This document shows positions 9,236-47,614 of a stretch of 64,000 nucleotides of DNA, one piece after another. A program made the position numbers and the translations under genes. Below the pieces are notes generated by a model, which ran no database searches, was not told where the DNA came from, and worked only from the letters and a program-made list of their open reading frames with translations. The stretch comes from an uncultured Chloroflexia bacterium. Lineage in GTDB: Bacteria > Chloroflexota > Limnocylindria > Limnocylindrales > CSP1-4. Location: assembly GCA_963746845.1 (NCBI GenBank), contig CAVVCZ010000004.1, forward strand, positions 864,001-928,000, in the 5' to 3' direction. How positions within the stretch are numbered: the stretch's first letter is position 1; each line of letters starts with the position of its first letter.

Positions 9236-9681
9236 CAGGCGACGTCGGTCCCGCTCGCGGCGAGGTCGTCCGGGGCGATGCCGTCGGCAAGGCCCGGACG
9301 TCCATCGACGGGACCGCCGGGCAGCGCCTCCAGCGGCGAGGTCCGCAGGCCGTCGACGTGGATCGTGAGCCTGGCGACCTCGCGCCCGAGCGCGCGCCGG
9401 ATCGTGTAACGGACCGCGGAGTCGACCTGGCGGGCGACCTCGGCGACCGGGAGCCCGTGGGCGATCGTCAGGTCGAGATCGACCGTGAGCTCCGGGGCCA
9501 GGCCGATCCGGATCCCGCGGGGCGGGATCCCGAGCCACTCGCCGACGCGGTCCGACCACCGGGCGCCGGCGAACCCCGTGACCCCGTAGGAGCCGAGCGT
9601 CGCGGCGCGGACGAGATCGGTCAGCGCACGACGGCTCACGAGCGAACGGCCGGGGAGTGGGGTGAGCGGGTCGGTCGGCAC
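9235..9681 (-). CDS. Asp23/Gls24 family protein (YloU-like)
   Basis: AATLGSYGVTG...GLPVAEVA..V...IHVDG; rpmB/yloU/yloV synteny; GTG after GAGGGAGG. Confidence 0.85.
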   Translation of the reverse strand: MPTDPLTPLPGRSLVSRRALTDLVRAATLGSYGVTGFAGARWSDRVGEWLGIPPRGIRIGLAPELTVDLDLTIAHGLPVAEVARQVDSAVRYTIRRALGREVARLTIHVDGLRTSPLEALPGGPVDGRPGLADGIAPDDLAASGTDVA

Positions 9682-9846
9682 GCCGCGGGCATCCTCCCTC
9701 AGGCTGGGTCGTGGACGCGCGCTGGCCTCGAGCGCGAAGCGGGTGCTATCATACCGCCCCGCTCGCGCCTTCCGGCCGGGCCCGTCCGTGCGTCCGCGTC
9801 CGGACTCCAGCTGATCAACCCGCTTCCACGTCGTTCGAGGACCATG

Positions 9847-10044
9847 ATGGCCCGCTCCTGTGCGATCTGCGGCAAGGTGTCGATGGGCGGCTTCAACCCG
9901 CAGTCGTCGGGGATGAACCGCGTCCGCGCCCACCGCCGTTACCAGCCGAACCTCCAGCCGTACACGATCCGCGAGAACGGCTCGGAGAAGAAGGCGCTCG
10001 TCTGCACCCGCTGCCGCCGGACCGCGCTGAAGTCCGCCAAGTAG
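9847..10044 (+). CDS. rpmB: 50S ribosomal protein L28
   Basis: MARSCAICGK...QPNLQ...VCTRC; divergent from yloU. Confidence 0.92.
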   Translation: MARSCAICGKVSMGGFNPQSSGMNRVRAHRRYQPNLQPYTIRENGSEKKALVCTRCRRTALKSAK

Positions 10045-10118
10045 CGTCTCGGCCGCCGCGAGCGGCACGTTCACGATCCGACGCCCGGCCGACGCCGGGC
10101 GTTTCCGTGTCCGGCTCC

Positions 10119-10565
10119 TCAGCGCTCCGCCGTGTCCAGCCAGATCGTGAACGGGCCGTCGTTCACCAGCTCCACCGCCATGACGGCGCCGAACCGGCCG
10201 GTCGCGACGGTGGTTCCCAGGTCGCGCAGCGCCGCCGCGAACCGCTCGTACAGCCGCTCCGCCTGCTCGGGCGGTGCCGCACCGGTGAACCCGGGCCGGC
10301 GTCCGCGTCGCGTGTCGGCGTAGAGCGTGAACTGGCTCACGACCAGCACTCCACCGTGGACGTCGCTCAGGGACAGGTTCGTCTTGCCGGCCTCGTCATC
10401 GAAGATCCGCAGCTCGGTCACCCGCCGCGCGAGGGCGTCGGCGATCGCCTCGTCGTCGTCCGGGCCGACCCCGAGCAGGATCAGCAGGCCCGGGCCGATC
10501 TCCCCGACGACCTCGTCCTCGACCCGGACGCGCGCGCCCGACGTCCGCTGGAGCAGCGCCCGCAC
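10119..10565 (-). CDS. dtd: D-aminoacyl-tRNA deacylase
   Basis: MRALLQR, SQFTL, NDGPFT motifs. Confidence 0.96.
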
Positions 10566-10568
10566 GCC

Positions 10569-11624
10569 TCAGCCGCCGGCGGGACGGGACGCGGATGTCG
10601 GGGCCGGCCCCGCACCGTCGACGCCCGGTCGCTGGGGTGACGGAGGACGGACCCCATGCTCGGCGATGTACGCCGCCCGCCAGCGCTCGGCTTCCTCCAG
10701 GTACCGCTCCCGATCGGCGGCGTGCCGCTCCTCGGTCAACGCCTCCGCCGACGCGGGGACCAGCAGGTCGTAGTCGCGGACCCCGTCGGGATTGAACCGG
10801 CCCGTGCCGCGCAGCGGGATGACCGGGATCCCGCCGGCCTCGATGTCGGCCATGAACCGCCACGCGAGGTGCTTCGGGAGCTGGGCGAACGTCACCATCG
10901 CGTCGCGCGGGATCGGCGGCTTGCCGTGGTTCAGCCGGTACTGGTAGCCCTCGTCGGCGAGGGCCCGGACGAGCCGGATCTCGCGGCCCATGTTCCGGCC
11001 CTTGATCCAGAGGACCGAGCCGACGACGAGGATGTCGACACCGAGCCCACCGACGAACTCCGCGGACTCGCGGTTCACGCCGCCGTCGACGTGGACCTCG
11101 GCGCCGACGGGCTTGTGCGACAGGTACTCGCGGGCGGCCAGGATCTTCTCCGCGGCCACGTCCTTCATGAACGACTGGCCTCCGAAGCCCGGCTCGACCG
11201 TCATGACCAGGATGATGTCGAGCAGGTGCCGGTACGGCTCGAGCGCCGAGAGCGGCGTGTTCGGCTTCACCGCGAGCCCGGCGGCCCGACCCGCCTTGCG
11301 GATCGCGACGAGCGCCGGCTCGATCAGCGCCGGGTCCACCTCGACGTGGAACGTGATCGAGTCGCAGCCGGCCTCGAGGAACTCGTCCACGAACCGGAGC
11401 GGGTCGCTGATCATCAGGTGCGCATCGAGCGGCAGCTCGGTCCGCGGCCGGATCCCGGCGATCATCCTCGGCCCGAACGTGAGGTTCGGGACGAAGTGGC
11501 CGTCCATGATGTCGATGTGGAAGCGGTCCGCCCCCTCGCGCTCGGCCCGCCGGATCGCGTGGGCCATGTTCGAGTGGTCCGCGTCGAGGATGCTCACCGC
11601 GACGCGGGCACGACCGCCGGCCAC
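10569..11624 (-). CDS. rpe: Ribulose-phosphate 3-epimerase with C-terminal extension
   Basis: HIDIMDGHFVPN, DAHLM, MTVEPGFGGQ, VDGG; GTG start inferred. Confidence 0.9.
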   Translation of the reverse strand: MAGGRARVAVSILDADHSNMAHAIRRAEREGADRFHIDIMDGHFVPNLTFGPRMIAGIRPRTELPLDAHLMISDPLRFVDEFLEAGCDSITFHVEVDPALIEPALVAIRKAGRAAGLAVKPNTPLSALEPYRHLLDIILVMTVEPGFGGQSFMKDVAAEKILAAREYLSHKPVGAEVHVDGGVNRESAEFVGGLGVDILVVGSVLWIKGRNMGREIRLVRALADEGYQYRLNHGKPPIPRDAMVTFAQLPKHLAWRFMADIEAGGIPVIPLRGTGRFNPDGVRDYDLLVPASAEALTEERHAADRERYLEEAERWRAAYIAEHGVRPPSPQRPGVDGAGPAPTSASRPAGG

Positions 11625-28183: not shown

Positions 28184-30013
28184 ATGCAGCGCTCGCAGGA
28201 GTCGCGGCCGCGGGCGAAGTCTCCCTTCGTCGCCGCGTTCCTCTCGCTCCTCTTCCCGGGTCTCGGACATGCCTATGCCGGCGCGTATCAGCGCGCCCTC
28301 GGCTTCGCGGCGCCGCTGGTCCTCGTCATGGCCCTCGTGGCCGGCCTCCTGCTCCGGATGGACGCGCCGCAGCTGATTGCGTTCGTCCTGACCCCGTGGG
28401 TCCTGCCGGGGGTCTTCGTGGTCAACCTCGTCCTGCTGATCTACCGGCTCGTCGCGATCGTCGATGCCTACCGCGTGACGATCTGGCTCAACGCCCTGGC
28501 CGCCAACGCCGGCGGACGCCTGGGCAAACCGCGGCTCGTGTTCCACCCGTTGTCGCTCGCGGGCCTGTTCGCCGTCCTGCTCGTGATGTCCGGCGCCCAC
28601 GTCGTCGTCGCCCGGTACGACCTGCTCGCGCTCGGCGCGCTCAACGATCCGTGCATCTTCGTCAGCGACCAGACGCCGGACACCTGCTCGGCCGATTCGT
28701 CGTCGCCGTCCGGCTCGGGCGCGGGCTCGAGCTCGGCGGGGCCGACCGATGAACCGGCCGACTCGCCGACGCCGACGGACACGCCCCCACCGATCCAGGG
28801 CTCGGACCTGCCGGACGCGACGATCCCGCCGTGGGACGGGACCGACCGCCTGAACATCCTGCTCATCGGCTCGGATCAGCGGCCCGGCGACGGGACCTAC
28901 AACACGGACACGCTGATCGTCGTCTCGATCGACCCGACGACCAAGCAGGTCGCGATGTTCAGCCTCCCGCGCGACTCGACGAACATCCCGCTGCCGCCCG
29001 GACCGTTGTCGAACGCGTATGGCGGCGTCTACGACCGGAAGATCAACTCGCTCTTCACCGCGACCCGCAACCGCGCCGACCTCGTTCCGGGCACGAGCCG
29101 GACGCGCGGCTACAACGCCCTGAAGATGGTCCTCGGCAACCTCTACCACCTCGACATCAAGTACTTCGTCGAGGTGAACTTCACGGGGTTCAAGCGGGTC
29201 GTCGACGCCATGGGCGGCGTGACGATCAACGTCCAGGTCCCGGTCCTCGACGACAACTACCCGAGCGACACGGGGCGGTCGGCGCGGGTCTACATCCCCG
29301 CCGGGATCCAGCACATGACCGGCGCCGAGGCGCTGGTGTACGCCCGGTCGCGGCACGGCTCGGACGATTTCGACCGCGGGGCTCGACAGCAGCGCGTTCT
29401 GACCTCGCTCCGGGAGCAGGCGAACGTGGGCCAGCTGATCCCGCGCATCCCGGACCTGCTCACCGCCCTGAAGTCGACCGTCAAGACGGACATCCCGCAG
29501 GACCAGCTGGCCAAGCTCGCCGGGCTCGCGAGCACCGTGGACACGAAGAACATCCGGTCGTACGTGTTCTCGTATCCGCGCTTCGGCTCGCAGGTCCTCG
29601 CCCCGATCTACAAGTACCTGCCCGACGTCACGAAGATCCGGAGCGCGGTCGCCAACGCGTTCAAGGTCGACCCGCAGCTCGAGGACACGCGGTCGGCGAT
29701 GGCCGACGAGAACGCGTCGATCTGGATCCTCGACGGCAGCGGCCGGGGCCAGGGCGCGAGCATGGTGGGGTATCTCGCCTACTACGGGCTGAGCGCATCC
29801 GCGCCGACCACCAAGCCGAAGACGACCGGCCTCAGCGGGACCCAGATCGTCGTGTACAACGGCGCCGAGACCGACCTGACCGACACGATCGCGTTCCTCG
29901 AGGACACGTTCAAGACGAAGGTCGTCCTGAAGGACGATCCGACGGTGCCCGTGGACATCGTCATCACGACGACGAGCAGCACCAAGACCCTGACGCCGCC
30001 GCCGACCAGCTAG
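28184..30013 (+). CDS. LCP (LytR-CpsA-Psr) family protein with N-terminal TMs and LytR_C domain
   Basis: NILLIGSD.R, TDTLIVVS, SLPRD, YARSRH..DDFDRGARQQ. Confidence 0.92.
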   Translation: MQRSQESRPRAKSPFVAAFLSLLFPGLGHAYAGAYQRALGFAAPLVLVMALVAGLLLRMDAPQLIAFVLTPWVLPGVFVVNLVLLIYRLVAIVDAYRVTIWLNALAANAGGRLGKPRLVFHPLSLAGLFAVLLVMSGAHVVVARYDLLALGALNDPCIFVSDQTPDTCSADSSSPSGSGAGSSSAGPTDEPADSPTPTDTPPPIQGSDLPDATIPPWDGTDRLNILLIGSDQRPGDGTYNTDTLIVVSIDPTTKQVAMFSLPRDSTNIPLPPGPLSNAYGGVYDRKINSLFTATRNRADLVPGTSRTRGYNALKMVLGNLYHLDIKYFVEVNFTGFKRVVDAMGGVTINVQVPVLDDNYPSDTGRSARVYIPAGIQHMTGAEALVYARSRHGSDDFDRGARQQRVLTSLREQANVGQLIPRIPDLLTALKSTVKTDIPQDQLAKLAGLASTVDTKNIRSYVFSYPRFGSQVLAPIYKYLPDVTKIRSAVANAFKVDPQLEDTRSAMADENASIWILDGSGRGQGASMVGYLAYYGLSASAPTTKPKTTGLSGTQIVVYNGAETDLTDTIAFLEDTFKTKVVLKDDPTVPVDIVITTTSSTKTLTPPPTS

Positions 30014-30329
30014 GGCGCCCCTTCGCGCGCGGCTCGCCCGCGCCGGACGGCGCTCTCTGCCGGCCGGGCAGCGTGACCCGACCTCGCCCCTACCTGGCCA
30101 TTCGTGCACCCAAGGCCCGTTAGGCGAGCTGGCGACGGGTCAGCGGCTCCTCGATCGGCCGGCGTCAGTCACGGACGGCTGACTCAGGGTCTAGCTGCGG
30201 CATCGAGGGGCTCGCTGAGTGCTCCAGCGGTCCCCTGGTGCAGATCTGATCAGTTTGGAGCCGTCAGCGTCGGGCTCGTAGCCACGGCGCGTGTCGCGAC
30301 CGGCGCCATCGAGCGACTCAGCGCCATGT

Positions 30330-30357
30330 TCGCAATGTGTCCGGCAATGTCACCGGG
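30330..30357. repeat. Inter-gene 28-bp motif, copy A
   Basis: TCGCAATGTGT-CCGGCA-ATGTCACCGGG. Confidence 0.65.
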
Positions 30358-30405
30358 TGAAATGGCGCCCGACCAGGGATGTCGCGCCGCCCACCAGCTG
30401 TGGGT

Positions 30406-30732
30406 TCATTCCGGCGGCCGGAGAATCCAAGGGCTGATCGCGATGATTCCGATCGCGGCGACCGCAAGCAAGGTGAGAAGTAACGCGGCGATCCATCTCC
30501 TCGCGGTGCGAGCCTTCACGGTGAGGCCGGCGACGACTGTGCCGGCGGCCAGCCCGATTGCAATCGCGGCGTAAAGGCCGGTGTTCCCGATGCGTCCTGC
30601 TGGACCGAGGACCGCCTCAATCGCGCGGTGCGTCAGGAGATATGCGACTGTCCCAGCGAACGTCCCAACAAGCCAGCGCTGCCACGAGAGCCGAGCCGCT
30701 GCGGGCGCAGTGTCGCCCTCCTGATGGCCCAT
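30406..30732 (-). CDS. Small 3-TM hypothetical membrane protein
   Basis: Three hydrophobic segments; TACGAT-6nt-ATG leaderless-type start. Confidence 0.65.
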   Translation of the reverse strand: MGHQEGDTAPAAARLSWQRWLVGTFAGTVAYLLTHRAIEAVLGPAGRIGNTGLYAAIAIGLAAGTVVAGLTVKARTARRWIAALLLTLLAVAAIGIIAISPWILRPPE

Positions 30733-30791
30733 GTCAGCATCGTATGTCAACGTCACCGCCTGGAAGGTCCTCGGGCCACATCGCGTCCCTG

Positions 30792-30819
30792 ACACCCAGC
30801 GTTCGCGAGTATCACTCGA
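30792..30819. repeat. Inter-gene 28-bp motif, degenerate copy B'
   Basis: acacccaGCGT-TCGCGA-gTaTCACtcga; a separate left-arm TCGCAATGCG lies at 30839-30848. Confidence 0.4.
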
Positions 30820-30863
30820 CGGCCTCCCGGTTGGTCAGTCGCAATGCGGCGACGACCCGTGGA

Positions 30864-31304
30864 TCACGCCATCCGCTCGACCCACGCCGCGCGCCACGCT
30901 GGGGCTTCGAACGGCGGGGCGAAGTACCACGTCTCGCGATACACCTTGCCGTCTCGGAGCTGGATCAGAACCGAGAGGAACCAGGTGGAACCATCGGGGT
31001 AGACGCTCGTCCCATCGGCGAACCAGAAGTCACCGCTACCGACGACACGGTGGATCGTGTTCGCAGGAGTCAGGACCCACTCGTCCTTGCTTCCGACGAC
31101 GCGGACCGACAAGCCGCTCGGGCGCCCATCCGGCCAGTTCTCCATGATCGCCCGGTCGTTCGCGCTGCCTCGGATCCGCTCGCCCGACTGGGGCCACTCA
31201 ACCAACCAGTCCTCGTCACGCAAGGCGCCGGCCGAATCGTAATCATGCGCGGCCTGCGCTTCGACGTAGCGACGGACGATCTCCTCGTTTGACGGGTTCG
31301 CCAC
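30864..31304 (-). CDS. SnoaL-like/NTF2-family protein
   Basis: IVRRY..A....D.....L..ED...EWPQSGERIRG...LRDGKV.RET.YF..PF..P.WR; GAGGGAGAG RBS. Confidence 0.88.
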   Translation of the reverse strand: MANPSNEEIVRRYVEAQAAHDYDSAGALRDEDWLVEWPQSGERIRGSANDRAIMENWPDGRPSGLSVRVVGSKDEWVLTPANTIHRVVGSGDFWFADGTSVYPDGSTWFLSVLIQLRDGKVYRETWYFAPPFEAPAWRAAWVERMA

Positions 31305-31395
31305 GTTCTCTCCCTCGGGTGCGTCGAGTCGCACCCATGATGGACCGGCCCGCGCGGTCGGGCCTCGTGTTGGGTCACACGAGGTGCTGTCGGCC

Positions 31396-31423
31396 TCGCA
31401 AAGCGTCCGGCAATGTCACATGG
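31396..31423. repeat. Inter-gene 28-bp motif, copy B
   Basis: TCGCAAAGCGT-CCGGCA-ATGTCACATGG. Confidence 0.7.
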
Positions 31424-31437
31424 TCAGGCGGGGAGAC

Positions 31438-31894
31438 CTACTCCACAGGTCCGCGCCTTCACGGGACCAAGCTCGGGTCGCAGCATGGGCGAGATCAGCC
31501 TCCGCGGGCAGGCCGCCAAGGTCGCGTCCGGTGACCGAGCTCGAGCGGTGTTCCATCAGGACCCAGCCCGGCAGGTCCGGCGTCGCGCGTCTGGGTCGTG
31601 ACCGCTCATCGATGCGTAGCAATCGACCGCGCTGAAGGCGGCCTCGTAGGCGACGGCTCGGAGAAGCGTCGACGGCGGAAGGCGATGCGCCGGCGTTGCG
31701 AGTCGAGCCTCGCGCCGGCGGGAAACCGCCGGATGACCTCCTCGGTTCCGAAAGGATCGATGTCCCGGGGCCGATCGACCGAAGGAAGAGAAGCGGGCCG
31801 TGTGGGGCCGAGTTCGTCACGCGCAACTCGGACTGCAGCCCAGCCGGCCGGGTCGTGCACCAAGGTGGGCCGTTCGTCGAGTCAGCTCATCCAT
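31438..31894 (-). pseudogene. Multiply frameshifted hypothetical gene
   Basis: CAGAAT-7nt-ATG start; protein-like pieces in different frames (LRAVAYEAAFSA; DLPGWVLME; TGRDLGGL; EGADLW). Confidence 0.5.
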
Positions 31895-31937
31895 GCCGGG
31901 CATTCTGCCGCCCTCAGTGAAGCAGTAGACGGCAACG

Positions 31938-31965
31938 TCGCAATGCGTACGCGAATGTCACATGG
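31938..31965. repeat. Inter-gene 28-bp motif, copy C
   Basis: TCGCAATGCGT-ACGCGA-ATGTCACATGG. Confidence 0.7.
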
Positions 31966-32155
31966 CCTTTGCGGGCGTTGTGTCGACTCGCGACGATCAG
32001 AGGGGAACGTCGTCGTCGTACTCCCGGCCAGGCGCCGCTACCACGGCGAGGGCACACGTCGTCTACCCAGACGAGTTACGGCGCCAAGGGGATCGAGATA
32101 AGTGGAAGTGCTGAACCGATCTATTCGACGCTCGGCGGTGTCGCGACGTCGCCGC

Positions 32156-32757
32156 TCACTCGGCCGCTGCGGGTCTGAAGAGGGGCGGAAGCGTTCGATC
32201 CGGAGCGACGGCCGGCGCCTCCGGTTGAGTCTTCTTTCCGGTGGTCGTGTTGGTGATCGGTCCGGTGCCCAAATAGCCGAAATCGGAGTTGGTCACGAAG
32301 CAGATCGGGTTCGTCCAGATCTCACCGCCCGGAGCCGGCGAACCACCGCCTTGTTGCGGCACGTCGCCCTTGATCTGGATCACCCAAACGGGCCCAGGCT
32401 CCACTGGGAGCGGCTCACGCCCGGTCAACGCAACGTAATGCGGCAAGTCGCTTGCGGCCGTCAGCTTTGCCATGCCGGCGACCTCGTTGAACGGGATGAA
32501 CTCGCCGATGCGGCATGTCGCGAAGACGGCAGCAGCTTCGGCGTCGGGATGTGAGGCGGATACAGCTGCAAGGGCGGGAGCGCCGCTTTCGGGCGTTGCG
32601 ACCAGCGCCAGCGATGCAACGGGCCGATTCGTCGGCGAGGTCGTCGAGTGCGGCGGCTCGGTGACAACCGTCCCAGCGGACACGCAACCAACAAGAGCGA
32701 CGGGCATGGGGATGAGGCGGCAATGGATCGGGTGGTCGAAGATCGGTCGTAGCGCAC
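32156..32757 (-). CDS. Putative lipoprotein; 5' end probably frameshifted
   Basis: LVGC lipobox, Ser/Thr/Pro linker, globular part with two Cys (PVWVIQIKG, WTNPICFV); start uncertain. Confidence 0.5.
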
Positions 32758-33062
32758 GACGGAGCGGCGAAGCGGTCGGCACACGCAGATGGTCCGTCCG
32801 GTTCCATGGGAGGCTCCGGGCATCGCATCGGCAATCGCTCAGCGTGCACAGCAACGCGGCGATGCATGCGTCCGTTCTCGGCTCCGCAAAGACAGGGAGC
32901 GCGACCGCCGCCGTGGGGCCGCCCGAGACCGATACCGAACTGATGGCAGCCGAAGAGGATGTTTCGGTGAGAAGAATGCAGCGATTCAATCCGAGCTCGA
33001 GAAGTCGAGAAGTCGAGGATGTCCGACTCTGCGCAGGTCGATCGCATATCCGGTCGATCGAC

Positions 33063-33094
33063 TAAAAATTTTTATATAATATTTATAAAAATAT
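33063..33094. other. 32-bp pure A/T tract with 9-bp inverted repeat
   Basis: ATTTTTATA-TAATATT-TATAAAAAT at 33068-33092. Confidence 0.85.
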
Positions 33095-33186
33095 GCCATT
33101 TGTAGGCGAGCCGCGCCGTCGGGACGGATGTGCGACGACCTTCGGTGACGCTTCGCTATGCTTTCATCGGTCAGACCCTCGCACTC

Positions 33187-33392
33187 GGACCTCCTCGTGG
33201 AGCGCTGACGCTGTGCCTCCCTGAAAGGTTGCCCATTTCTCGCCTGGTGCGATCTCTCACAGGGATCGATTCCGGCCGGAAGCCGGGAAATCGCGCTGGA
33301 GGCCGCCGAATCGATCTCCCGTGGAGATCGATGGTGCGCGTACGGCGATCGATGAACCTGCGACTCGTGGGATCGATCTCCGTCAGAGATCA
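33187..33392. repeat. Palindromes CGATCTC-N5-GAGATCG at a 62-bp period
   Basis: Copies start at 33250, 33312 and 33374; degenerate copy at about 33187. Confidence 0.65.
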
Positions 33393-33409
33393 CCCGCGCG
33401 GCGGACCCG

Positions 33410-34423
33410 TCAGGCGGACGGGATCTCCGTGAGCCAGTGCCGATACTCGGGCAGCCGGCCGCGCACCGCGTCGAAGTACCGGTCGCGCATCAGCTTCGCG
33501 ATCGGGCCGACCTCGCCCGACCCGATCGGGCGGTGGTCGATCTCGATGACCGGGGAGATCTGGACGCCCGTCCCGCACAGGAACATCTCGTCGGCGACGT
33601 ACAGCTCGGAACGGTCGATCGAGCGGATCTCGACCGGAATCTTCTCGTTCGCGAGCAGCTCGAGCATCGCCTTGCGGGTCACGCCCTCGAGCAGGTCGTC
33701 GTTGACCGGCGGGGTCAGCGCCACGCCGTCGCGGACGATGAACAGGTTGGCCGCCGAGGCCTCGTTGACGTGCCCGTCGGCCGTGAGGACGACCGCCTCG
33801 TCGTAGCCGTTCATCTCGGCCTCGGACTTCTGGAAGGCCATGTTCACGTAACCGCCGACGATCTTGCCCCGCGCGGGGAGTGCCTCGTCCGCGTTCCGCC
33901 GCCAGGTCGAGGTCATGACCCGGACGCCCGAATCGGTGTCGATGTAGTTCCCGAACGGGATCGCGATGATGTAGAGCTCGTTGTCCAGATGGTGGAGCCG
34001 GACGCCGATCGCCTTCGTCGACTTGTAGAACGACGGGCGGATGTAGACGTCCTCGTGGAAGCCGTTCCGGGCGACCGTCTCGACGATCAGCCGGGTCAGC
34101 TCGTCGACCGACGGCACGTTCTCCATCAGGAGGATCCGGCACGACTGGCGGATCCGCTCGACGTGCTCCCGGATCTTCAGCCCGTAGAGCTTGCCGTGCT
34201 CCGCGTTCCAGTAGCCCCGGATGCCCTCGAAGGTGGCCGTCCCGTACATGAACGCGTGGGTCATGATGCTGACCTTCGCGTCGCGCATCGGGACGAACTC
34301 GCCCTCGAAGTAGCAGATGACGCTGCCGAGGTCGCGTGGCGCGGGCGCCGCGGTGTGGGGGTCCGAGGCGGGCGCCGACGCGGTCGCTGCGCCTCGGGCC
34401 GGGCTCGACTTGTGGGTCAGCAT
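33410..34423 (-). CDS. ilvE: Branched-chain amino acid aminotransferase
   Basis: HAFMYGTATFEGIR, K..G.Y, E.S.AN.F, LEGVTR, ADEMFLCGT. Confidence 0.93.
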   Translation of the reverse strand: MLTHKSSPARGAATASAPASDPHTAAPAPRDLGSVICYFEGEFVPMRDAKVSIMTHAFMYGTATFEGIRGYWNAEHGKLYGLKIREHVERIRQSCRILLMENVPSVDELTRLIVETVARNGFHEDVYIRPSFYKSTKAIGVRLHHLDNELYIIAIPFGNYIDTDSGVRVMTSTWRRNADEALPARGKIVGGYVNMAFQKSEAEMNGYDEAVVLTADGHVNEASAANLFIVRDGVALTPPVNDDLLEGVTRKAMLELLANEKIPVEIRSIDRSELYVADEMFLCGTGVQISPVIEIDHRPIGSGEVGPIAKLMRDRYFDAVRGRLPEYRHWLTEIPSA

Positions 34424-34564
34424 GCGGACGCTCCTGGGCGGATCTGCGGCATGCGGCGACGGGTCGCGTCGCGGCCTGCCGGTCGTGGTTCCGGGACGGT
34501 CGCCCGAGGATAACACGGGCCCTCGAGGCATCCCGCGACGCAGCCCGGACGGCCTCCGCGGTCC

Positions 34565-39665: not shown

Positions 39666-39750
39666 CCCGGCCCGCCTTCGACGCGCTACAAGCCTCCTGG
39701 ATGTGGGGTGGCCCGCGCCGGCCGCGTCCCGGTCTGGTCGCGGCTGCCCC

Positions 39751-42099
39751 TCAGGCGGCCCGAGCGGCGGCGGGAGTCGCCTCCGGGTGCTCGTCACCGA
39801 GCGCCAGATAGAGCTCTTCCTCCTGGGCCATGTGGAGACGCAGGATCGCGTCGAGGCCGTAGAGCACGCGGCGCAGGTCCGTGAGGTCCTGGGGCCCCGG
39901 GCCTTCCTCGGGCACCTCCGCCACGAGGCGGTCCACCAGCCGGATCAGGTGGAAGATCTCGGTGTGGGTGCGATGGAGGGCGGCGGTCACGTCGTCGTTG
40001 CCGATGGCGCTCGCCAGGAGTGGGAAGACCTCCCGGTCTTCGGCCTCCTCGTGCCGGATGAGCGTCGTCAGGAGGAACGAGCGAATCCGCTGCATCTCGT
40101 CGCGGGCCACACCCGGCGGCACTGAGCCGAGCCCGTCGGCAAGCACGCGGATGCCCGCCATGGGCCGCGCGAGCTCACGGTGCTCGGCGCGAAGGCGAAC
40201 GCCGATCTCGGTCCAGCCCGGAATCTTCGGCGTCTTCTCCAGGCCACCTCCCAGCGCCCGCAGGGCGTTGATGATCACGATCACGTCGATGACCTCCTGG
40301 AGGAGCGCGCCGGCGACGGGCGGCAGGACACCCGTCATCGCGACGAGCATTGCGGCGATCGACAGGCCCATCCCGACAGCCACGCTCTGGAGGGCGATCG
40401 TCCGCGACCGGCTGGCGATCCGGATCGCCTCCGGCAAGCGGTCCAGCCGATCGACGGTGATGACGATGTCCGCCGCCTCGGAGCTGGCTGTGGCGCCCCG
40501 GGCACCCATGGCGACGCCGACATCTGCCGCCGCCAACGCCGGCGCGTCGTTGATCCCGTCGCCCACCATGACGAGGATGCCGTCCGCCTCCGCTCGCTCG
40601 TCCTTGACTGCGTCCACCTTGTCGGCCGGCGTGCGTTCCGCCAGGACCGCATCCACGCCGATCGCAGCGGCCACCATGTCCGCCACCCCGTAATGGTCCC
40701 CGGTCACCATGACCGTCCGGCGCACGCCCGCGCGGCGGAGCGAGCGGATGACCCTCGCCGTCTCGGGGCGAATCGGATCCTCGAGCACCAGTGCCCCGAC
40801 CATCACCCCGTCGACGGCCACGAACACGCTGGTGGCACCCTCGAGGCTCACGCGGCGTCGGACGTCCCGCGCCCAGCTGGGCAGGCCACTCCCTCCACTG
40901 GCGAAGTCGGGAGTGCCGGCCACCACCGCGCGGCCACCGACGCGGCCCGAAACGCCGGAGCCTGGGACCTCGACGACGTTGTCTGGAAGGACGAGCGCCA
41001 CGCCGCGCTCGCGGGCACCGCTGACGATCGAGGCTGCGAGGACGTGTGGCGACACCTGCTCGAGCGAGGCGGCGACGATCAGCACATCGTCCGCGGCCGC
41101 GCCGGGGGCGGTGACGACGTCGGTCAGCTGGGGGCGCCCGACGGTCAGGGTGCCGGTCTTGTCGAACAGCAGAACGCGGGCCCTGGAGATGGACTCCAGC
41201 GCGCCGCCGCCCTTCACGATGATCCCCCGGCGGGCCGCCCGGCTGATCCCGGCCACGATCGCGATCGGCACCGCGAGGAGCAGCGGGCACGGGGTCGCGA
41301 CGACGAGGACCGCCACCGCCCGCACGGGGTCCCCGGAGAGGATCCAGGCCAGCGCCGCCAGACCGAGCGCCAGGGGGACGAACAACAGGGCAAAGCGGTC
41401 GGCCAGACGGACGAACGGCGCCTTGGACGATTGCGCCTGCTCGACCAGACGCACGATGCCCGCGTAGGTGCTGCGCTCCGCGGTCGCTGTGGCCAACAGG
41501 TCGAACGGGGCGCCCGCGTTGACCGTCCCGGAGCTGACGGGATCGCCTGCCTCGCGCGTGGCGAGCCGCGATTCGCCGGTCAGCGCCGACTCATCGATGA
41601 CCGCCGGCACGCCCGTGACGGTGCCGTCCACCGGCACGACCTCGCCCGGCTTCACGAGGATCCGGTCGCCGACTTCAACGACCGCGATCGGGTGATCGAC
41701 GATCCCGCCGTTCTCGTGGCGGTGGACCGCCTGCGGGGCGCGTGAGATCAGCGCCGACAGCTCACGATGGGCCCGGCCGGCCGCGTAGCGCTCGAGCCAC
41801 TGTCCGGTCGCGAGCATGACCGCGATCACTGCGGCGGCGAGCGACTCATCGAGCACGAGGGCTCCGCCGATCGCCAGGACGGCGATGATGTCGACGCCGG
41901 CCTCATGCCTGATCAGGTCGGCGATGATCGACGCGACCAGCCAGATGCCGACGAGCAGGGCCGGGACGGTCCAGGCCCACCAAGCGAGGGAGTCGTTGCC
42001 GGCGACCGTCGCCACGATGCCGAGCACCAGCCCGCCGGCCGTGAGGGGGAGCATCGTGCGCTCCGCGAGCCTGCGGAGGGTCGTCAGGATTCGGGCCAT
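39751..42099 (-). CDS. P1B-5-type heavy-metal P-type ATPase with C-terminal hemerythrin domain
   Basis: TGES, ATPCPL, DKTGT, HP-equivalent SPH, MVGDGIND, QEVID; C-terminal H...HEEAED...H...HMAQEE. Confidence 0.9.
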   Translation of the reverse strand: MARILTTLRRLAERTMLPLTAGGLVLGIVATVAGNDSLAWWAWTVPALLVGIWLVASIIADLIRHEAGVDIIAVLAIGGALVLDESLAAAVIAVMLATGQWLERYAAGRAHRELSALISRAPQAVHRHENGGIVDHPIAVVEVGDRILVKPGEVVPVDGTVTGVPAVIDESALTGESRLATREAGDPVSSGTVNAGAPFDLLATATAERSTYAGIVRLVEQAQSSKAPFVRLADRFALLFVPLALGLAALAWILSGDPVRAVAVLVVATPCPLLLAVPIAIVAGISRAARRGIIVKGGGALESISRARVLLFDKTGTLTVGRPQLTDVVTAPGAAADDVLIVAASLEQVSPHVLAASIVSGARERGVALVLPDNVVEVPGSGVSGRVGGRAVVAGTPDFASGGSGLPSWARDVRRRVSLEGATSVFVAVDGVMVGALVLEDPIRPETARVIRSLRRAGVRRTVMVTGDHYGVADMVAAAIGVDAVLAERTPADKVDAVKDERAEADGILVMVGDGINDAPALAAADVGVAMGARGATASSEAADIVITVDRLDRLPEAIRIASRSRTIALQSVAVGMGLSIAAMLVAMTGVLPPVAGALLQEVIDVIVIINALRALGGGLEKTPKIPGWTEIGVRLRAEHRELARPMAGIRVLADGLGSVPPGVARDEMQRIRSFLLTTLIRHEEAEDREVFPLLASAIGNDDVTAALHRTHTEIFHLIRLVDRLVAEVPEEGPGPQDLTDLRRVLYGLDAILRLHMAQEEELYLALGDEHPEATPAAARAA

Positions 42100-42143
42100 A
42101 TGCCGATGCTATCGACGATCCACGGCCGTGCACCCTGCCGGTT

Positions 42144-42170
42144 GGACCAATTCGTCGGGACCAGTCCGTC
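42144..42170. promoter_or_regulatory. Tandem 13-bp repeats upstream of the P-type ATPase
   Basis: GGACCAATTCGTC (42144) and GGACCAGTCCGTC (42158); -10 TAGCAT 6 nt before ATG. Confidence 0.45.
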
Positions 42171-42243
42171 CCTGCGCCGCGGGACCGGGCCGGCATCGAG
42201 CGCAGAAGGTCATCAAGACGCCCCGGGTCGCCTTGTCTCTCTC

Positions 42244-43560
42244 CTACATCCCCGTCCGGGCCATCCGCCAGATGGCCCGGACCGTCGGCCGCTGGCCGTA
42301 CAGGAGCACGCCGGCCGCGTAGATCCGGGCCGCGATCCACAGTGCGGTCGCGATCGCGACCGCCAGGAGCACGATCGCCAGCATGACCTCGGGCACCGAC
42401 GCCGCACCCGCCGACACGCGGCCCAGGACCATGAATGGACTGACGAACGGGACGAAGGCGAGGAAGGCGATCCAGCCGTCGCGCATGTTCAGGAGACCCG
42501 TCGAAGCATAGACGGCGACGAGATACGCCCCGGTCGAGATGATCGCAAGCGGCATGACGGCCGCCTGGACGTCCTCCTGGCGGCTGACCAACGAACCCGC
42601 GGCCGCGTACAGCACGCCATACAGCAGGAAGCCCAGGACCCCGAACACGCCGAGCAGGAGCAGCAAGCCGAGGGTGAGCCCCGCCGGCAGCGCGGTGCCG
42701 GTGCCCGTCTCGCCCAGGACGGCACTCGCGACCGGGCCCTCGACAAGGAGCGCGATGGCGCCCGCTCCGAGGATGGCCGCGTATTGAGTCAGGGCCACGG
42801 CACCGACGCCGAGAACCTTGCCGCTCAGCAGCTGGAACGGCGTGGTGGCGTTGAGGACGACCTCCATGACCCGCGAGGATTTCTCCTCGACCACGCTCAT
42901 CGCAATCCAGTTCCCGTACAGGATGATGAGCATGAAGATGAGGATCGTGAGGCCGATCCCGAGCAGCCAGTCGGCACCGGTCTGGGCGGCGTCGGGGCCG
43001 GGGCCCGTCCGCGCGGGGTCAGGCCAGCTCACGGTCAGCTGCGCAGGCCGGAACAGGGACGCCGCCTGGCCCGGGTCGACGCCGAGTCGGTCCAGCCGAT
43101 CGGCGATGGCGATCGTCGTGGTCGCCAGGAGCGCCGTCCGGTTGGCCCCGGGGTCGTCGCTGTACAGCGTGAACCGTAGCTCACCGTCGGTCGCGCGGTC
43201 GATCGCCAGGACCGCGGCAAGGCGGCCGTCGACGACGTCCTGCCGGGCGCGGGCCAGGTCCGCTACGCGGGTCACGGTGAAGTCGGTGCCGGCAGCGGAA
43301 TCGGCGGATGCCTGCCCCGTCGGTGCGTTCAGGATGGCCGTGAGCGATGCGACGGGATCCGCGGCCATGTCGCTCGCCGCGACGAAGACCCCGATCTCCT
43401 GGGTCTCGGTCCGGTCGATGTAGCGAGTGATGACCGGCAGCAGCGCCACGGCAACAATCGCCAAGGCGAGGATGACCGTGCCCAGGACGAAGCTCCTGGT
43501 CCGGACCCGGACGACATACTCACGTCGGGCGATGGTGGCGATGGTCGACAGGTTGGTCAT
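42244..43560 (-). CDS. ABC-2 exporter permease (NatB/YhaP-like)
   Basis: IARREY..RVR, EEKSSRVME, L.GK..G, multiple TMs. Confidence 0.9.
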   Translation of the reverse strand: MTNLSTIATIARREYVVRVRTRSFVLGTVILALAIVAVALLPVITRYIDRTETQEIGVFVAASDMAADPVASLTAILNAPTGQASADSAAGTDFTVTRVADLARARQDVVDGRLAAVLAIDRATDGELRFTLYSDDPGANRTALLATTTIAIADRLDRLGVDPGQAASLFRPAQLTVSWPDPARTGPGPDAAQTGADWLLGIGLTILIFMLIILYGNWIAMSVVEEKSSRVMEVVLNATTPFQLLSGKVLGVGAVALTQYAAILGAGAIALLVEGPVASAVLGETGTGTALPAGLTLGLLLLLGVFGVLGFLLYGVLYAAAGSLVSRQEDVQAAVMPLAIISTGAYLVAVYASTGLLNMRDGWIAFLAFVPFVSPFMVLGRVSAGAASVPEVMLAIVLLAVAIATALWIAARIYAAGVLLYGQRPTVRAIWRMARTGM

Positions 43561-44534
43561 GACGGAACCTCGGGCCTCGCCAGGGTCGTCGCTTCCCGCT
43601 CGAGGGCCCCGACCCGTTCCACGAAGACCTCCTCGAGCGACGGATCGGCGACTTCGAACCGCAGCACATCGCCCCCGTGATCGATCGCGGCGTGCAGGAG
43701 CTCCTGGGGATCGCCGCCTGAGTCGACGTTGACCTCGGTGTAGTCCTCGCCCTGGCGGGTCACGACGACGTGCGGGAGCGATCGCAGCCAGGTGAGGTCT
43801 CCGTCACGACTCGTGGCCAGCCGGACCGTCTGCCGCCCCGTCGACCGCTTCACCTCTCGGGTCGGCCCCGCCGTGACGATCGTCCCGTGGTCGATGATCG
43901 CCACGGATTCGCACAGCTCCTCCGCCATGTCGAGCTGATGGGTGCTGAAGACGAGCGTCTTGCCGCGGTCGCGCATCTCGAGGAGCGCGGCCTTGAGGAG
44001 CAGGACGTTGACTGGATCGAGACCGACGAACGGCTCGTCCATCAGGATCACATCAGGGTCGTGGAGCACGGTCGCGATGAACTGGACCTTCTGCTGATTG
44101 CCCTTCGACAGGCTCTCGGCCCGGCGCTCGGCGGCATCGGCGATCCGGAACCGAGCGAGCCAGTCGAGCGCGTCCGAGCGGGCCTTCGACCGGGACACTC
44201 CGTACAGCGAGGCGTAATAGACCAGCTGATCGAGGACGGGCATGCGGAGGTAGAGACCGCGTTCTTCCGGCATGTAGCCCCACGTGCGGCGCGGCCAGCT
44301 CTTCGCTTCCCGATCGTTCCAGGTGACCGTGCCCTCGTCCGCGTGAAGAAACCCCAGCGCGATCCGCATCGTGGTCGTCTTGCCGGCGCCGTTGGCACCG
44401 AGGAATCCGAAGACCTCGCCTTGACGGACTTCGAAGGTCACGCCGTCGAGCGCCTGGACCTCGCCGAACCGCTTGCGCAAGCCGTCGATCTTGAGCACGA
44501 GTCCAGTGTCCGAGGGCGCCACCGGTCCGGACAA
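43557..44534 (-). CDS. ABC exporter ATP-binding protein (YhaQ-like)
   Basis: GANGAGKTT, GYMPEERGLY, LSKGNQQK, DEPF.GLDP, PSLEEVF. Confidence 0.92.
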   Translation of the reverse strand: MSGPVAPSDTGLVLKIDGLRKRFGEVQALDGVTFEVRQGEVFGFLGANGAGKTTTMRIALGFLHADEGTVTWNDREAKSWPRRTWGYMPEERGLYLRMPVLDQLVYYASLYGVSRSKARSDALDWLARFRIADAAERRAESLSKGNQQKVQFIATVLHDPDVILMDEPFVGLDPVNVLLLKAALLEMRDRGKTLVFSTHQLDMAEELCESVAIIDHGTIVTAGPTREVKRSTGRQTVRLATSRDGDLTWLRSLPHVVVTRQGEDYTEVNVDSGGDPQELLHAAIDHGGDVLRFEVADPSLEEVFVERVGALEREATTLARPEVPS

Positions 44535-44697
44535 GGTCCGTTCGGCCCAATCGCCGAAGCCCGTCGGTCCCGACGTTCCGCTCCGGCCGCGGGCCCAATC
44601 CGGCGCACGCGCGTTGCGACATTCAGGTCGCTGATCCCGAAGACCTCAGCGGTCCGCCGGTGGCTCCGGGGCCACGACTTCTCGATCTACCAACGTT

Positions 44698-44753
44698 TGG
44701 TGCCGGAGGCGAGATTCGAACTCGCAAGGTGTCTCCACCAGCGGTGTTTAAGA
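44698..44753 (-). repeat. Duplicated 3' portion of tRNA-Leu(TAA) (att site)
   Basis: 56 bp matching 47528-47583 with one mismatch; ends just past the anticodon loop. Confidence 0.92.
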
Positions 44754-44942
44754 GCGGGTTGTTTCAGCTCGGCCCGAGCGACGGTCTAGCTGTCACACGT
44801 AGCCGACGCGCGGAGCGGCGGGTCACTCGGCAGCCCAGACGCTCGCGATCACCTGGCGGTTACGCCCGACCTCGGCGCCGGGGATCGTCGCCCACGTGAT
44901 CAGCCAGGCGGCGAGGCCGTCACCGGGCGGCCCGGCTCGACT

Positions 44943-45979
44943 TCAGGGCTTCCGGACGATGTCGTCGGGGACGTTGTCGAGCACCGAGGCCGCGCCGTTC
45001 AGCGTGAGATGGCCACCGATCCAGAGGAAGACACCGCCCCCCTGGGCAGCCCGGTTGTGATGGACCGAGGCCGAAATCGTTGAGCACGGCGTCGGCCATG
45101 GCGAGCCAGATGCCGCCGCCGCCCTCGGCGACGTCGCTGTCTCCGGTCGCGGTGTTGTCGTGGACCGAGCTCGTGCCGTTGAGGATCAGGGGCCCGGACT
45201 CGCTGACCTCGATGCCGCCGCCGGAGGTTGCGCTGTTGTGATCGACGGAGCTCGCGCCATCGAGCTCGATCGGCTCGGCATGGGTAGCGAAGATGCCGCC
45301 GCCGTCGCCGGTCGTCGTGTTGGCCGTCACGATGCTGTCCCGGAGGGTCACGCCGCCGTCAAAGACGCTGATGCCGCCGCCAGTGTTTCCGATGATCGTC
45401 GATCGGATCAGCATCAGCTTGCCCTGGAACCCGACCCCGACGCCGACGCCAGTGTTGTGGCTTATCGTGGAATCGAGGATCGTCAGCATGGCCAGAGGGT
45501 CCTCGCTGGTGGGCCTGTCCGTCCGAGACCCCGCCGCCACCGTTGTTTCGGATGACATCGCGGACGAGGGTCAGGGAGCCGTGGTTGGTGATCCCGCCAC
45601 CGGGTGTCCCCAGCCCGTTCGCGATGGTCAGGCTCCGGATCGTGACGGTCACGCCCCCCGCAACGGTCACGACCGAGCCGGCCCGTTGGCCGTCGAGGAT
45701 CGGCCGACCGAAGTGGGTACTGCGCATGCCGACGATCGTGAGGTTCTTCGGGATGGTCGTCGTCCCCTGGCAGGTGCCATAGACGAGGAGCGTGTCGCCC
45801 GCCCGGGCGCGATTGACGGCCCACTGGAGGCGGGAGTGCCGCGCCGCGCTGCGGACGTCCACCACCCGACACTTCGGCGTGCTGGCTGACGCCACGGACA
45901 CTGCCGCAGGCACCATGGCGAACGCCAGCGCGCCGGCCAACGCCAGACTCACGCGCACGGCGCGTGGACGGGATGTCAT
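44943..45979 (-). pseudogene. Secreted right-handed beta-helix (pectin-lyase/Pmp-like) protein with two frameshifts
   Basis: Signal peptide, LQ.AV..A..GDTL, GGGI / N.A..GGG repeats; frame changes near 45520 and 45075. Confidence 0.78.
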
Positions 45980-46158
45980 CTCCTGCCTCCATCGCCTTCC
46001 GGCGAGGCGGTACAGGCCTCGCCCACCCGAACGACCTCCGTCTTCGGGCCCGAATGAGACGCGAGAACCGCCCCATCGTTGCACCTTCACGTCTGAGGAT
46101 CGTCTCGGCCCGCCACGGTGCGGTTGCGGACGCGGTCGCGTCGTGTAGCGTCTGGGCT

Positions 46159-46201
46159 GGTCGCCGAGTACCGGCGCGCGACCCCATCGGAGGAGGTCGC
46201 C
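46159..46201 (+). promoter_or_regulatory. Conserved structured leader, copy 1
   Basis: GGTCGCCGAGTACCGGCGCGCGACCCC...AGGAGGTCGCC. Confidence 0.7.
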
Positions 46202-46203
46202 CG

Positions 46204-46434
46204 ATGTCTCGACGATCCGCCCGGAACGGATCCACCAGGCACATCGCGCCGGCACGGTGCAGCGCCTCATCGGCGAGGGCGAGCTCCCGGAGCGCGCGGA
46301 GGCGCTGGTGGCTTGCTGGGAGACGTACGCAGCCGCCGACGGTCTCGAGCGCGAACGGGCGGTGGTGGGAGGCGGGCTGGGCGTGGATGCACGCCCAACG
46401 CGCGGAACGTCACGCCGACGTAGCGTCGTTGTAA
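46204..46434 (+). pseudogene. Small unknown protein, paralog 1 (two compensating frameshifts)
   Basis: Reconstructed MSRRS.PERIHQAHRAGTVQRLIGEGELPERAEALVACWE...GLERDGRWWEAGWAW by alignment with paralog 3. Confidence 0.65.
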
Positions 46435-46472
46435 GGTCGAGCGCAAGGTCGTCGCGGCAACATCTGTGGGCC

Positions 46473-46721
46473 ATGTACCAGTCAGGCGTGCATCCCGCGG
46501 TTGCTCGCGATCGTGCCCGACGGGCGATCGCCACCGCTCGGGCGCGCGTGGTCGAGCGGCTCGTTCGCGACGGCATGCCGTCACGGACCGCGGAGCCGCT
46601 GGTGGACGAGTGGCTTCGGAGCACCGACATGCTGGTGGACTTCCGGGCGGCTCCGGACTTCTGGCATCTCGCCTACCAGTTCGCGCTGGAGGAATACCGC
46701 CGCCGGGACACGGCCGGCTAG
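46473..46721 (+). CDS. Small unknown protein, paralog 2 (divergent)
   Basis: RARVVERLVRDGMPSRTAEPLVDEW...FW..A aligns with RAGTVQRLIGEGELPERAEALVACW...WW..G. Confidence 0.6.
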   Translation: MYQSGVHPAVARDRARRAIATARARVVERLVRDGMPSRTAEPLVDEWLRSTDMLVDFRAAPDFWHLAYQFALEEYRRRDTAG

Positions 46722-46873
46722 TGTCCGGTCGGAGGACGTAGCACGGCGGGTGGACCGAGTCGTTCGCGCGTCGATCACCCTCCGCTATTCGGGGTAGATA
46801 CGGAGGCGTAACGTTCTCGGCAGCCCCGGAGCGAAGATTTCCCCCCATCTTCGCGCCGCGGGCCTGAGTTCTC

Positions 46874-46917
46874 GGTCGCCGAGTACCGGCGCGCGACCCC
46901 GTCGTCAGGAGGTCGCC
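46874..46917 (+). promoter_or_regulatory. Conserved structured leader, copy 2
   Basis: 27 bp identical to 46159-46185, then the same AGGAGGTCGCC. Confidence 0.7.
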
Positions 46918-46919
46918 AC

Positions 46920-47462
46920 GTGTCTCGCCCATCGACGCCCGAACCCATCTACCAGGCGCGTCGCGCCGGGACACTCCAGCGCCTGATCGGCGAGGGTGAA
47001 CTGCCGGACCGCGCCGAGCGTCTGGTCGCGCTGTTGGAGGCGGAGACGGCTCGGGACGGCCTCGAGCGGGACGGACGGTATCGACAGGACGATGAACCCG
47101 ACGAACCACAGAAAGATCATCGTGAACGCGATGCCACTGCCGATGGCCGTGCCGGCCTGACAGGCCGCGCGGGTGTTGCCGACCTCCAACCGGCGGCCGC
47201 CAAGAACCTGACCGGTACGTTCGACCACTGGGAACCGGTCGATGACGGTCACGGCCACGCGTACTTCGCGGTCACGAACAACGGTTCGGCTGCCGCCACA
47301 GCTGAATGCACGGTCCAGGTCCGTGACGACTTCGGCGACTTCGGATTCGACTCGCTCGTCGGGGAGACGGTCGAGCCCGGCAAGACGATCACCGGACGCA
47401 TGGCCCTGAGCGTCGGGAAGGGCTCGTTCTTGATCAACAGCGGCTCGGTCACGAACTGCTAA
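46920..47462 (+). CDS. Mosaic ORF: truncated paralog 3 + inverted membrane-gene fragment + Ig-like C-terminal fragment
   Basis: Homology to paralog 1 stops at GLERDGRY (about 47081); minus strand 47080-47180 reads AGTAIGSGIAFTMIFLWFVGFIVLSI; tail is beta-rich with 2 Cys. Confidence 0.5.
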   Translation: MSRPSTPEPIYQARRAGTLQRLIGEGELPDRAERLVALLEAETARDGLERDGRYRQDDEPDEPQKDHRERDATADGRAGLTGRAGVADLQPAAAKNLTGTFDHWEPVDDGHGHAYFAVTNNGSAAATAECTVQVRDDFGDFGFDSLVGETVEPGKTITGRMALSVGKGSFLINSGSVTNC

Positions 47463-47527
47463 AGGTCCGATACAGCCACGTGATGTCCGCCAGTGTTCGC
47501 CTGATGATGCCGCGATGCTGCCAATGT

Positions 47528-47614
47528 TGGTGCCGGAGGCGAGATTCGAACTCGCAAGGTGTCACCACCAGCGGTGTTTAAGACCGCCGCGTCTGCCTGT
47601 TCCGCCACTCCGGC
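47528..47614 (-). tRNA. tRNA-Leu(TAA)
   Basis: GCCGGAG/CTCCGGC acceptor, GCGGT-CT-TAA-AC-ACCGC, long variable arm, TTCGAAT, encoded CCA. Confidence 0.96.

Follow-up and report, generated by a model that had tools for sequence, protein, structure and literature searches.

A 24-nt asymmetric repeat bounds exchangeable gene units in a candidate integron-like array of soil Chloroflexota

To our knowledge, among systems that stockpile single promoter-poor genes as exchangeable cassettes, only integrons are well understood. A complete integron needs the gene intI beside attI; a CALIN (cluster of attC sites lacking integron integrase) does not. CALINs are defined in this way in PMC4889954, where attC sites are described as longer imperfect palindromes, with R and L boxes, that are recombined as folded single strands. 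On plasmids, short sites served in trans do something similar in the dif modules of Acinetobacter. As described in PMC6449649, the inner arms of classical dif and pdif sites are palindromic, and inverted sites flank the dif modules. Here we analyze a 64-kb stretch of chromosomal DNA from a soil Chloroflexota bacterium (positions 864,001 to 928,000 of contig CAVVCZ010000004.1, assembly GCA_963746845.1; hereafter the window). Between an ilvE-like class IV aminotransferase gene and a gene of the LytR-CpsA-Psr (LCP) family it carries a row of small units, each associated with a 24-nt repeat or its remains. The repeat marks the boundaries of exchangeable gene units. We put at roughly 55% the probability that the units form an integron-like array of cassettes, each made of an open reading frame (ORF) and a 3′ site, and that a site-specific enzyme, itself encoded elsewhere, moves them. 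No cassette array with such a site, or in this lineage, is described in the full-text literature searched.

An earlier reading made from the letters of this DNA alone, the sequence-only reading, had reported a recurring motif, TCGCAAWGYGT-N6-ATGTCAC. This motif has exactly three matches in the window, all on the plus strand as written (sites A, B and C; Table 1). The chance expectation is 0.03, three matches were reached in 0 of 100 shuffles, and allowing up to 3 mismatches adds no further match. A repeat finder gives the family a length of 29 nt, with a 24-nt core, and similarity in an alignment of 190 nt around each copy ends at about 29 nt. A site model (R1), built from the sequences of five copies, scores the three window copies at 33–35 bits (E = 7e-10 to 3e-9) and everything else at 5.2 bits or less. 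On the coding strand the site reads GTGACATT-N6-CNCWTTRCGA. Copies B and C agree at 21 of 22 arm positions, with a different central 6 bp in each, as had been noted from the sequence. The site lacks dyad symmetry, the inner arms matching as an inverted repeat at 2 of 5 positions. All of the conserved sequence is 5′ of the unit boundary and none 3′ of it, and no conserved 5′ end signal was found at the unit starts.

To compare the array with related loci, we performed a genome search with an alignment of the lipoprotein encoded in one of the units, chosen because it lies inside the array and belongs to a small family. Among the 14 loci returned, a single one, L001, is syntenic, with the lipoprotein between ilvE and LCP. 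L001 comes from a related Limnocylindrales-like metagenome-assembled genome of a different species. It carries two sites, 9874-9897 and 10652-10675, one on either side of the lipoprotein gene, and all five sites (three in the window, two in L001) are in direct orientation. None of the 13 non-syntenic loci holds a site at up to 4 mismatches, above 12 bits with a position weight matrix, or with the sequence model. Read along the coding strand, the order in the window is left junction J0, lipoprotein unit, site C, ORF-poor unit, site B, SnoaL unit, relic, membrane-protein unit, site A and LCP flank. In L001 it is J0, S4 unit, site, lipoprotein unit, site and LCP flank.

The presence/absence differences between the window and L001 consist of two indels, each starting and ending at motif edges or at J0. 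The first comprises 1608 bp (three units, site B and the relic pieces) that are present in the window and missing in L001, both ends falling at a site edge. With blastn, L001 10523-10676 corresponds to window 32090-31937 at 98.7% and L001 10652-17996 to window 30353-23042 at 81%. The L001 site at 10652-10675 therefore aligns to both C and A: its left flank is that of C, and its right flank is homologous to that of A from the first base past the site. The central six bases and position 16 distinguish site A from C, and in the hybrid L001 site both have the C form. Because that site is joined to the flank of A, the exchange point lies in the last 8 nt, outside the 6-bp centre. The second indel is 601 bp found only in L001 (9297-9897, comprising the upstream site and the S4 ORF); its insertion point corresponds by homology to the window junction between 33240 and 33239, which is J0. 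Gene content between LCP and ilvE thus varies between the two genomes, as the sequence-only reading had proposed to check, with breakpoints at the motif edge and not in the 6-bp core that it had named.

The sites also behave as parts of the units. They equal the units in number, and each site variant goes with the unit upstream of it. Site C and the downstream L001 site are identical at 24 of 24 nt despite different following DNA, and 8 of 24 positions differ between the two L001 sites on either side of the lipoprotein unit. These comparisons indicate that the sites are cassette-specific and are not duplicated targets. Sites that recombined are identical only in two 8-nt blocks.

Sequence divergence separates the lipoprotein unit from its surroundings. 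Between the window and L001 the unit is 97–98% identical in 300-column windows, whereas the flanking DNA is 86.7% (6280 columns) and 81.8% (7229 columns) identical, with a single 300-column window out of 259 in the flanks reaching 95%. Third-codon identity follows the same pattern: 165/173 in the lipoprotein, against 298/373, 457/608 and 263/351 in the flanking genes. The switch in identity falls at the site. This discordance indicates that, in at least one of the two genomes, the lipoprotein unit is much younger than the chromosome around it.

The lipoprotein is a member of a lineage-specific family (56 proteins), for which the ESM Atlas holds unnamed clusters only; most homologues of the cassette genes come from metagenomes. 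At the non-syntenic loci, the start of the lipoprotein gene overlaps an upstream reading frame in 6 of the 9 that are readable, as judged by eye (L002, L003, L005, L006, L008 and L010). The partner was checked at L005 only, where the partner ORF (9102-9971) was confirmed and overlaps the lipoprotein ORF (9968-10525). This partner appears to be a secreted protein of about 289 amino acids with a conserved C-terminal end, and the overlap of stop and start suggests translational coupling. In the window and in L001 the lipoprotein gene stands alone, without its operon partner, as would be expected of a gene captured from its two-gene operon.

In the cassette array that we favor, each cassette would lie on the minus strand and consist of a 70–90-nt leader, usually one ORF, and a 24–29-nt 3′ site. 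Strand exchange would take place at or inside the last 8 bases of the site. The site would remain with the upstream cassette, and the next cassette would start at the following base. Entry and exit, presumably by way of a circular intermediate, would occur at an existing site or at J0, a degenerate junction downstream of the ilvE-like gene that we propose as the primary (attI-like) insertion point; what lies beside J0 is the ilvE-like gene, with no intI. The enzyme would be a site-specific recombinase or nuclease, acting in trans and encoded outside the locus. An enzyme is favored over general recombination because only two 8-nt blocks are shared, J0 shares less, and the sites of the young lipoprotein unit differ as extensively as they do. 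Two identical blocks of 8 nt are short for RecA-type exchange. The proposal of the sequence-only reading, a gene-capture array serviced in trans, gains from the two motif-edge indels, the discordant shared unit and the lack of a recombinase in the 64 kb.

Several points weigh against the cassette array. The sites are carried by only two genomes, and the evidence amounts to two indels and one discordant unit. No integrase, resolvase, recombinase or transposase family was found with Pfam among the 51 + 8 + 7 ORFs of the window, and a comparison by blast only, with no Pfam scan, revealed no recombinase in the 20 kb of syntenic L001 sequence. The asymmetry of the site is unusual for the core sites of tyrosine recombinases. 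An inverted repeat across the crossover point stands above the null in 1 of 8 junctions (7/7 matches, null P = 0.0035); the other seven are at the null mean, and a core-type dyad at the exchange point is not supported. Within the site, RCATTGC occurs twice as a direct repeat, 12 nt apart. The spacing of 70–91 nt between site and ORF, in the three units with a clear ORF, would suit a promoter-proximal element as well. In the window the array shows partial decay, one unit being geneless and another broken. Finally, GC content at third codon positions (GC3) of the lipoprotein gene is low (0.60–0.76) in most genomes, the native operon included, which makes composition weak evidence of recent import.

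The alternative that survives best, possible though on balance improbable, is that the motif is a shared expression signal (an operator, an activator site, or a 3′ untranslated-region or processing element) and that the genomes came to differ by homologous or microhomology-mediated recombination without a dedicated enzyme. The site does lie 70, 91 and 88 nt upstream of the starts of the lipoprotein (L001), SnoaL and membrane-protein genes, and its internal direct repeat resembles those of tandem-binding regulators. Because the motif is the sole sequence common to the units, breakpoints at the motif are expected under this explanation too. However, no gene lies downstream of the last site in either genome; that site faces the convergent LCP 3′ end, which is all that follows site A, and the unit that comes after site C has no supported gene. 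Among the ORFs scanned, none in or next to the array encodes a regulator. A sigma-70 consensus scan of 29900-33500 found 0 promoter-like sites and did not confirm the earlier claim that each gene has its own -10. The promoter/terminator scan predicted three terminator-like sites, none of them at a motif. A reading of the motif itself as -35/-10 hexamers was rejected, with no consistent -10 at a spacing of 16–18 nt by eye. An expression signal also sits poorly with exchange between sites whose identical blocks measure just 8 nt, and with the placement of the S4 unit at J0, which matches one arm only, at 7 of 10 positions. It leaves unexplained why the site variant follows the upstream gene. The sequence-only reading had itself offered an operator as its alternative; the geneless terminal copy in both genomes and the 8/24 differing sites do no more than weaken that idea.

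Single-strand mobilization offers another explanation, which we regard as unlikely. The sites would then be cleavage or termination signals of an HUH-type, rolling-circle or peel-and-paste process, with units laid down up to a 3′ signal. Conservation wholly 5′ of the boundary, co-oriented units, the lack of dyad symmetry and the lack of target-site duplications are all as such a process would have them. The conserved signal that it would place at unit starts is missing, and the window ORFs scanned include no HUH or Rep gene. Nor is there a subterminal hairpin: DNA folds of about 100 nt ending at six sites gave z = -1.19 to +0.54 and no common structure, and an attC-like hairpin was rejected on these folds.

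Slightly less likely still is the same array served by the host pair XerC/XerD at dif-like sites, in the manner of Acinetobacter dif modules or integrative mobile elements exploiting Xer (IMEX). The sequence-only reading had drawn attention to a Xer/dif geometry, and a length of about 28 nt, a possible 11-6-11 reading and the lack of a dedicated recombinase nearby agree with it. The plus-strand ATGTCAC end loosely resembles what we take to be the XerD arm of dif. This framing nevertheless fails on the symmetry of the inner arms and on orientation, all sites being direct. It also fails on the crossover, which lies at the gene-sense 3′ edge, right of position 16 and outside the 6-bp centre, given that the centre and position 16 are the same in site C and the L001 site and different in A. 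The locus is not a terminus, since no GC-skew or strand switch marks one and almost all genes to either side share one strand.

Two further explanations are very improbable. Target-site duplication by a long staggered cut, of the kind that makes CRISPR (clustered regularly interspaced short palindromic repeats) repeats or accompanies casposons, would account for regular repeats that separate inserted DNA in an array growing at a defined end, but is disfavored by the differing sites around the L001 lipoprotein unit, of which the downstream one is identical between genomes, by sites that equal the units instead of numbering one more, and by the lack of a Cas1-like gene among the window ORFs scanned. 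An assembly artefact or chance repeat in a poorly assembled region might be suspected from two metagenome-assembled genomes and from three odd inserts with 1–5 bp microhomologies in the window lipoprotein copy, but an independent assembly, from a different species, has the site and the lipoprotein unit in the same syntenic position (contigs of 377 kb and 1.41 Mb), and the repeat has the low chance expectation given above.

Table 1. Features of the array and its flanks in the window (positions counted from the first base of the 64-kb stretch)
Feature	Position	Strand	Description
LytR-CpsA-Psr (LCP) family gene	28184..30013	+	PF03816, E = 5e-32; 89.7% amino acid identity to L001; convergent with the array
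Site A	30330..30353	-	29 nt with conserved upstream bases to 30358; 32.9 bits, E = 3e-9; last site of the array
Unit 4	30330..30838	-	509 bp; small membrane-protein ORF 30406-30750; ends in site A
Degenerate copy of the sequence-only reading	30792..30815	-	left arm and centre retained, right arm lost; 16/24 in register
Relic right arm (probable)	30839..30848	-	10/10 match, just past the SnoaL stop codon; 3.3 bits, E = 9.4, not significant alone
Unit 3	30839..31395	-	557 bp; SnoaL_2 / NTF2-like ORF 30864-31304
Site B	31396..31419	-	34.9 bits, E = 6.9e-10; closes the ORF-poor unit at its 3′ end; SnoaL start 91 nt downstream
Unit 2	31396..31937	-	542 bp; no supported gene; ends in site B
Site C	31938..31961	-	33.5 bits, E = 1.9e-9; 3′ end of the lipoprotein unit; 24/24 nt identical to L001 10652-10675; 98.7% identity to L001 across the 153 nt that lead up to and include the site
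Unit 1	31938..33239	-	1302 bp (778 bp in L001); lineage-specific lipoprotein gene, body 32186-32703; ends in site C
Left junction J0	33240..33249	-	no full site; 7/10 positions of the right arm, same four end bases
Three palindromic repeats	33251-33267, 33313-33329, 33375-33391		6-nt half-sites, 5-nt spacer, ~62-bp period; between the ilvE-like stop codon and J0, the third abutting J0
Class IV aminotransferase (ilvE-like) gene	33410..34531	-	PF01063, E = 3e-43; 88% amino acid identity to L001; upstream of the array, co-oriented

The units measure 509, 557, 542, 601 and 778 bp and carry unrelated genes. The SnoaL_2 ORF of unit 3 is a real gene (Pfam PF12680, E = 4e-7), with 3038 homologues, the best at 92% identity. 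Its leader holds a perfect 8-bp stem with a 6-nt loop at 31363-31384, 11 nt past site B on the coding strand. The membrane-protein ORF of unit 4 has 2 non-self homologues (57% and 62% identity) and no Pfam family, and in the ESM Atlas it meets only clusters called ‘hypothetical’ or ‘transmembrane’. Unit 2 had been credited with a decayed hypothetical gene. In every candidate frame of this unit GC3 is 0.65–0.72 with no Pfam match, and the ORF at 31416-31826 (GC3 0.72) likewise has no Pfam match and no credible homologue, a single match at E = 4.8e-4 having been found in 1.84 billion representatives; a gene there was not confirmed. The S4-domain ORF of L001 (9353-9736; PF01479, E = 3e-15; GC3 0.85) is in the opposite orientation to the other cassette genes.

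The lipoprotein gene, which the sequence-only reading had placed after the array, is itself one of the units, broken in the window by three inserts that L001 lacks: 33160-32917 (244 bp), 32886-32704 (183 bp) and 32185-32091 (95 bp). Together they split the gene body from its start codon region and its signal peptide, and the last two codons are replaced. At the insert junctions there are microhomologies of only 1–5 bp. A metagenome protein with 99% identity (P0002) has the intact form. The 244-bp insert includes a very AT-rich tract of about 50 bp (33050-33100), in a genome of 71% GC.

The 68-bp spacer between the SnoaL and membrane-protein genes was treated as holding relic pieces of a site and no copy. 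The degenerate copy that had been reported there survives as a weak 16/24 match accompanied by a relic 10-nt arm; it is not a full copy, since the site model gives it 5.0 bits (30798-30818; E = 2.7 over the window). The right-arm pattern occurs 4 times in the 64 kb, all on the minus strand and all within the array, against 0.9 expected. The arm just past the SnoaL stop codon is probably the remnant of the site of the SnoaL unit.

The interval differs in composition from its surroundings. Its GC content is 0.65–0.66 against 0.71 for the window, and GC3 is 0.72–0.82 in the candidate minus-strand ORFs of the interval, lower still in a plus-strand frame, against 0.95–0.96 in the LCP and ilvE-like genes; the drop in GC that had been noticed in the array region is confirmed. 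No tRNA or transfer-messenger RNA (tmRNA) lies inside the interval, and Rfam, at the gathering threshold and at E ≤ 10, returned over the interval only chance-level matches to unrelated families. Island DNA had no match, in distant mode, in plasmid and phage collections. Apart from the motif, neither the island nor the three inserts are repeated elsewhere in the window or in the loci. The palindromic repeats that follow the ilvE-like gene could be terminators or a platform for protein binding; L001 has two of the same palindromes in the equivalent place (9212-9228 and 9269-9285).

The rest of the window is housekeeping in character, with plsX, recG, fmt, def, priA, ileS, rpsF-ssb-rpsR, whiA, cofD, tatC and eight tRNAs. 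Away from the array, the 3′ part of tRNA-Leu(taa) forms a 57-bp direct repeat, 98% identical, at 44697-44753 and 47527-47583. The repeat brackets 2.8 kb in which 7 ORFs were scanned with 0 Pfam matches, so that no integrase was recognized. The segment resembles the remains, without integrase, of a tRNA-targeted element. A wider segment, 39674-47507 (P-type ATPase, ABC transporter and beta-helix protein), is missing from L001.

How far the array resembles described systems bears on what it would mean. Neisseria minimal mobile elements are alternative gene cassettes held between conserved flanking genes and exchanged by homologous recombination. They share with this locus a variable single-gene content between two core genes, but lack an internal repeated site, and here the breakpoints fall at a 24-nt site and not in conserved flanks. 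Cis-mobilizable elements (CIMEs), which are related to integrative and conjugative elements (ICEs), offer a second parallel by accretion at attachment sites. In accounts of the streptococcal ICE CIMEs and of the ssrA islands of Dehalococcoides, direct attachment repeats part successive segments, some of them without an integrase and dependent in trans. As these accounts portray them, the repeats are the 3′ ends of tRNA, tmRNA or other genes, the elements range from kilobases to tens of kilobases, and at least some carry an integrase. The attachment sequence here is instead intergenic, the units are the size of single genes, and none has an integrase. Dehalococcoides is also a member of the Chloroflexota.

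Acinetobacter dif modules and IMEX come closer in that they are small modules without a recombinase of their own, bounded by sites of about 28 bp, with the enzyme presumed to act in trans, as described in PMC6449649. The dif modules of that account are plasmid-borne and have inverted pdif sites and exchange in the 6-bp centre, whereas the present array is chromosomal and away from the terminus, its sites are direct and asymmetric, and exchange falls outside the centre. Should the expression-signal explanation hold, the locus would be no more than a small region of variable content in which an expression signal recurs. If the cassette array is right, the 24-nt site is easily scanned and gives a handle for finding the enzyme through co-occurrence, and the lipoprotein would provide a natural test case for cassette birth, with one gene taken from a two-gene operon.

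The nearest likeness is to integrons and CALINs. No intI or attI was recognized here, only two genomes carry the array, and the 24–29-nt site is non-palindromic and forms no single-strand hairpin. As in integrons and CALINs, the units are co-oriented, about 0.5–0.8 kb long and usually made of one ORF and a 3′ site with unrelated cargo; they are gained or lost whole, and the site goes with the upstream cassette, exchange taking place at its distal edge. One end of the array has a distinct primary junction, as in integrons, and no integrase lies nearby, a feature of CALINs as defined in PMC4889954. Tentatively, and with less confidence than in the array itself, we suggest that Limnocylindrales-like Chloroflexota may possess an undescribed chromosomal gene-capture system. 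It would hold single-gene cassettes with a short, asymmetric, non-hairpin 24-nt 3′ site at a set chromosomal position downstream of a housekeeping gene, with an enzyme encoded elsewhere to insert and excise them, and would run parallel to integrons, possibly with a different enzyme family. Beside integrons and dif modules it would be a third solution, a chromosomal one in an abundant uncultured soil lineage, and would widen the known modes of bacterial gene capture.

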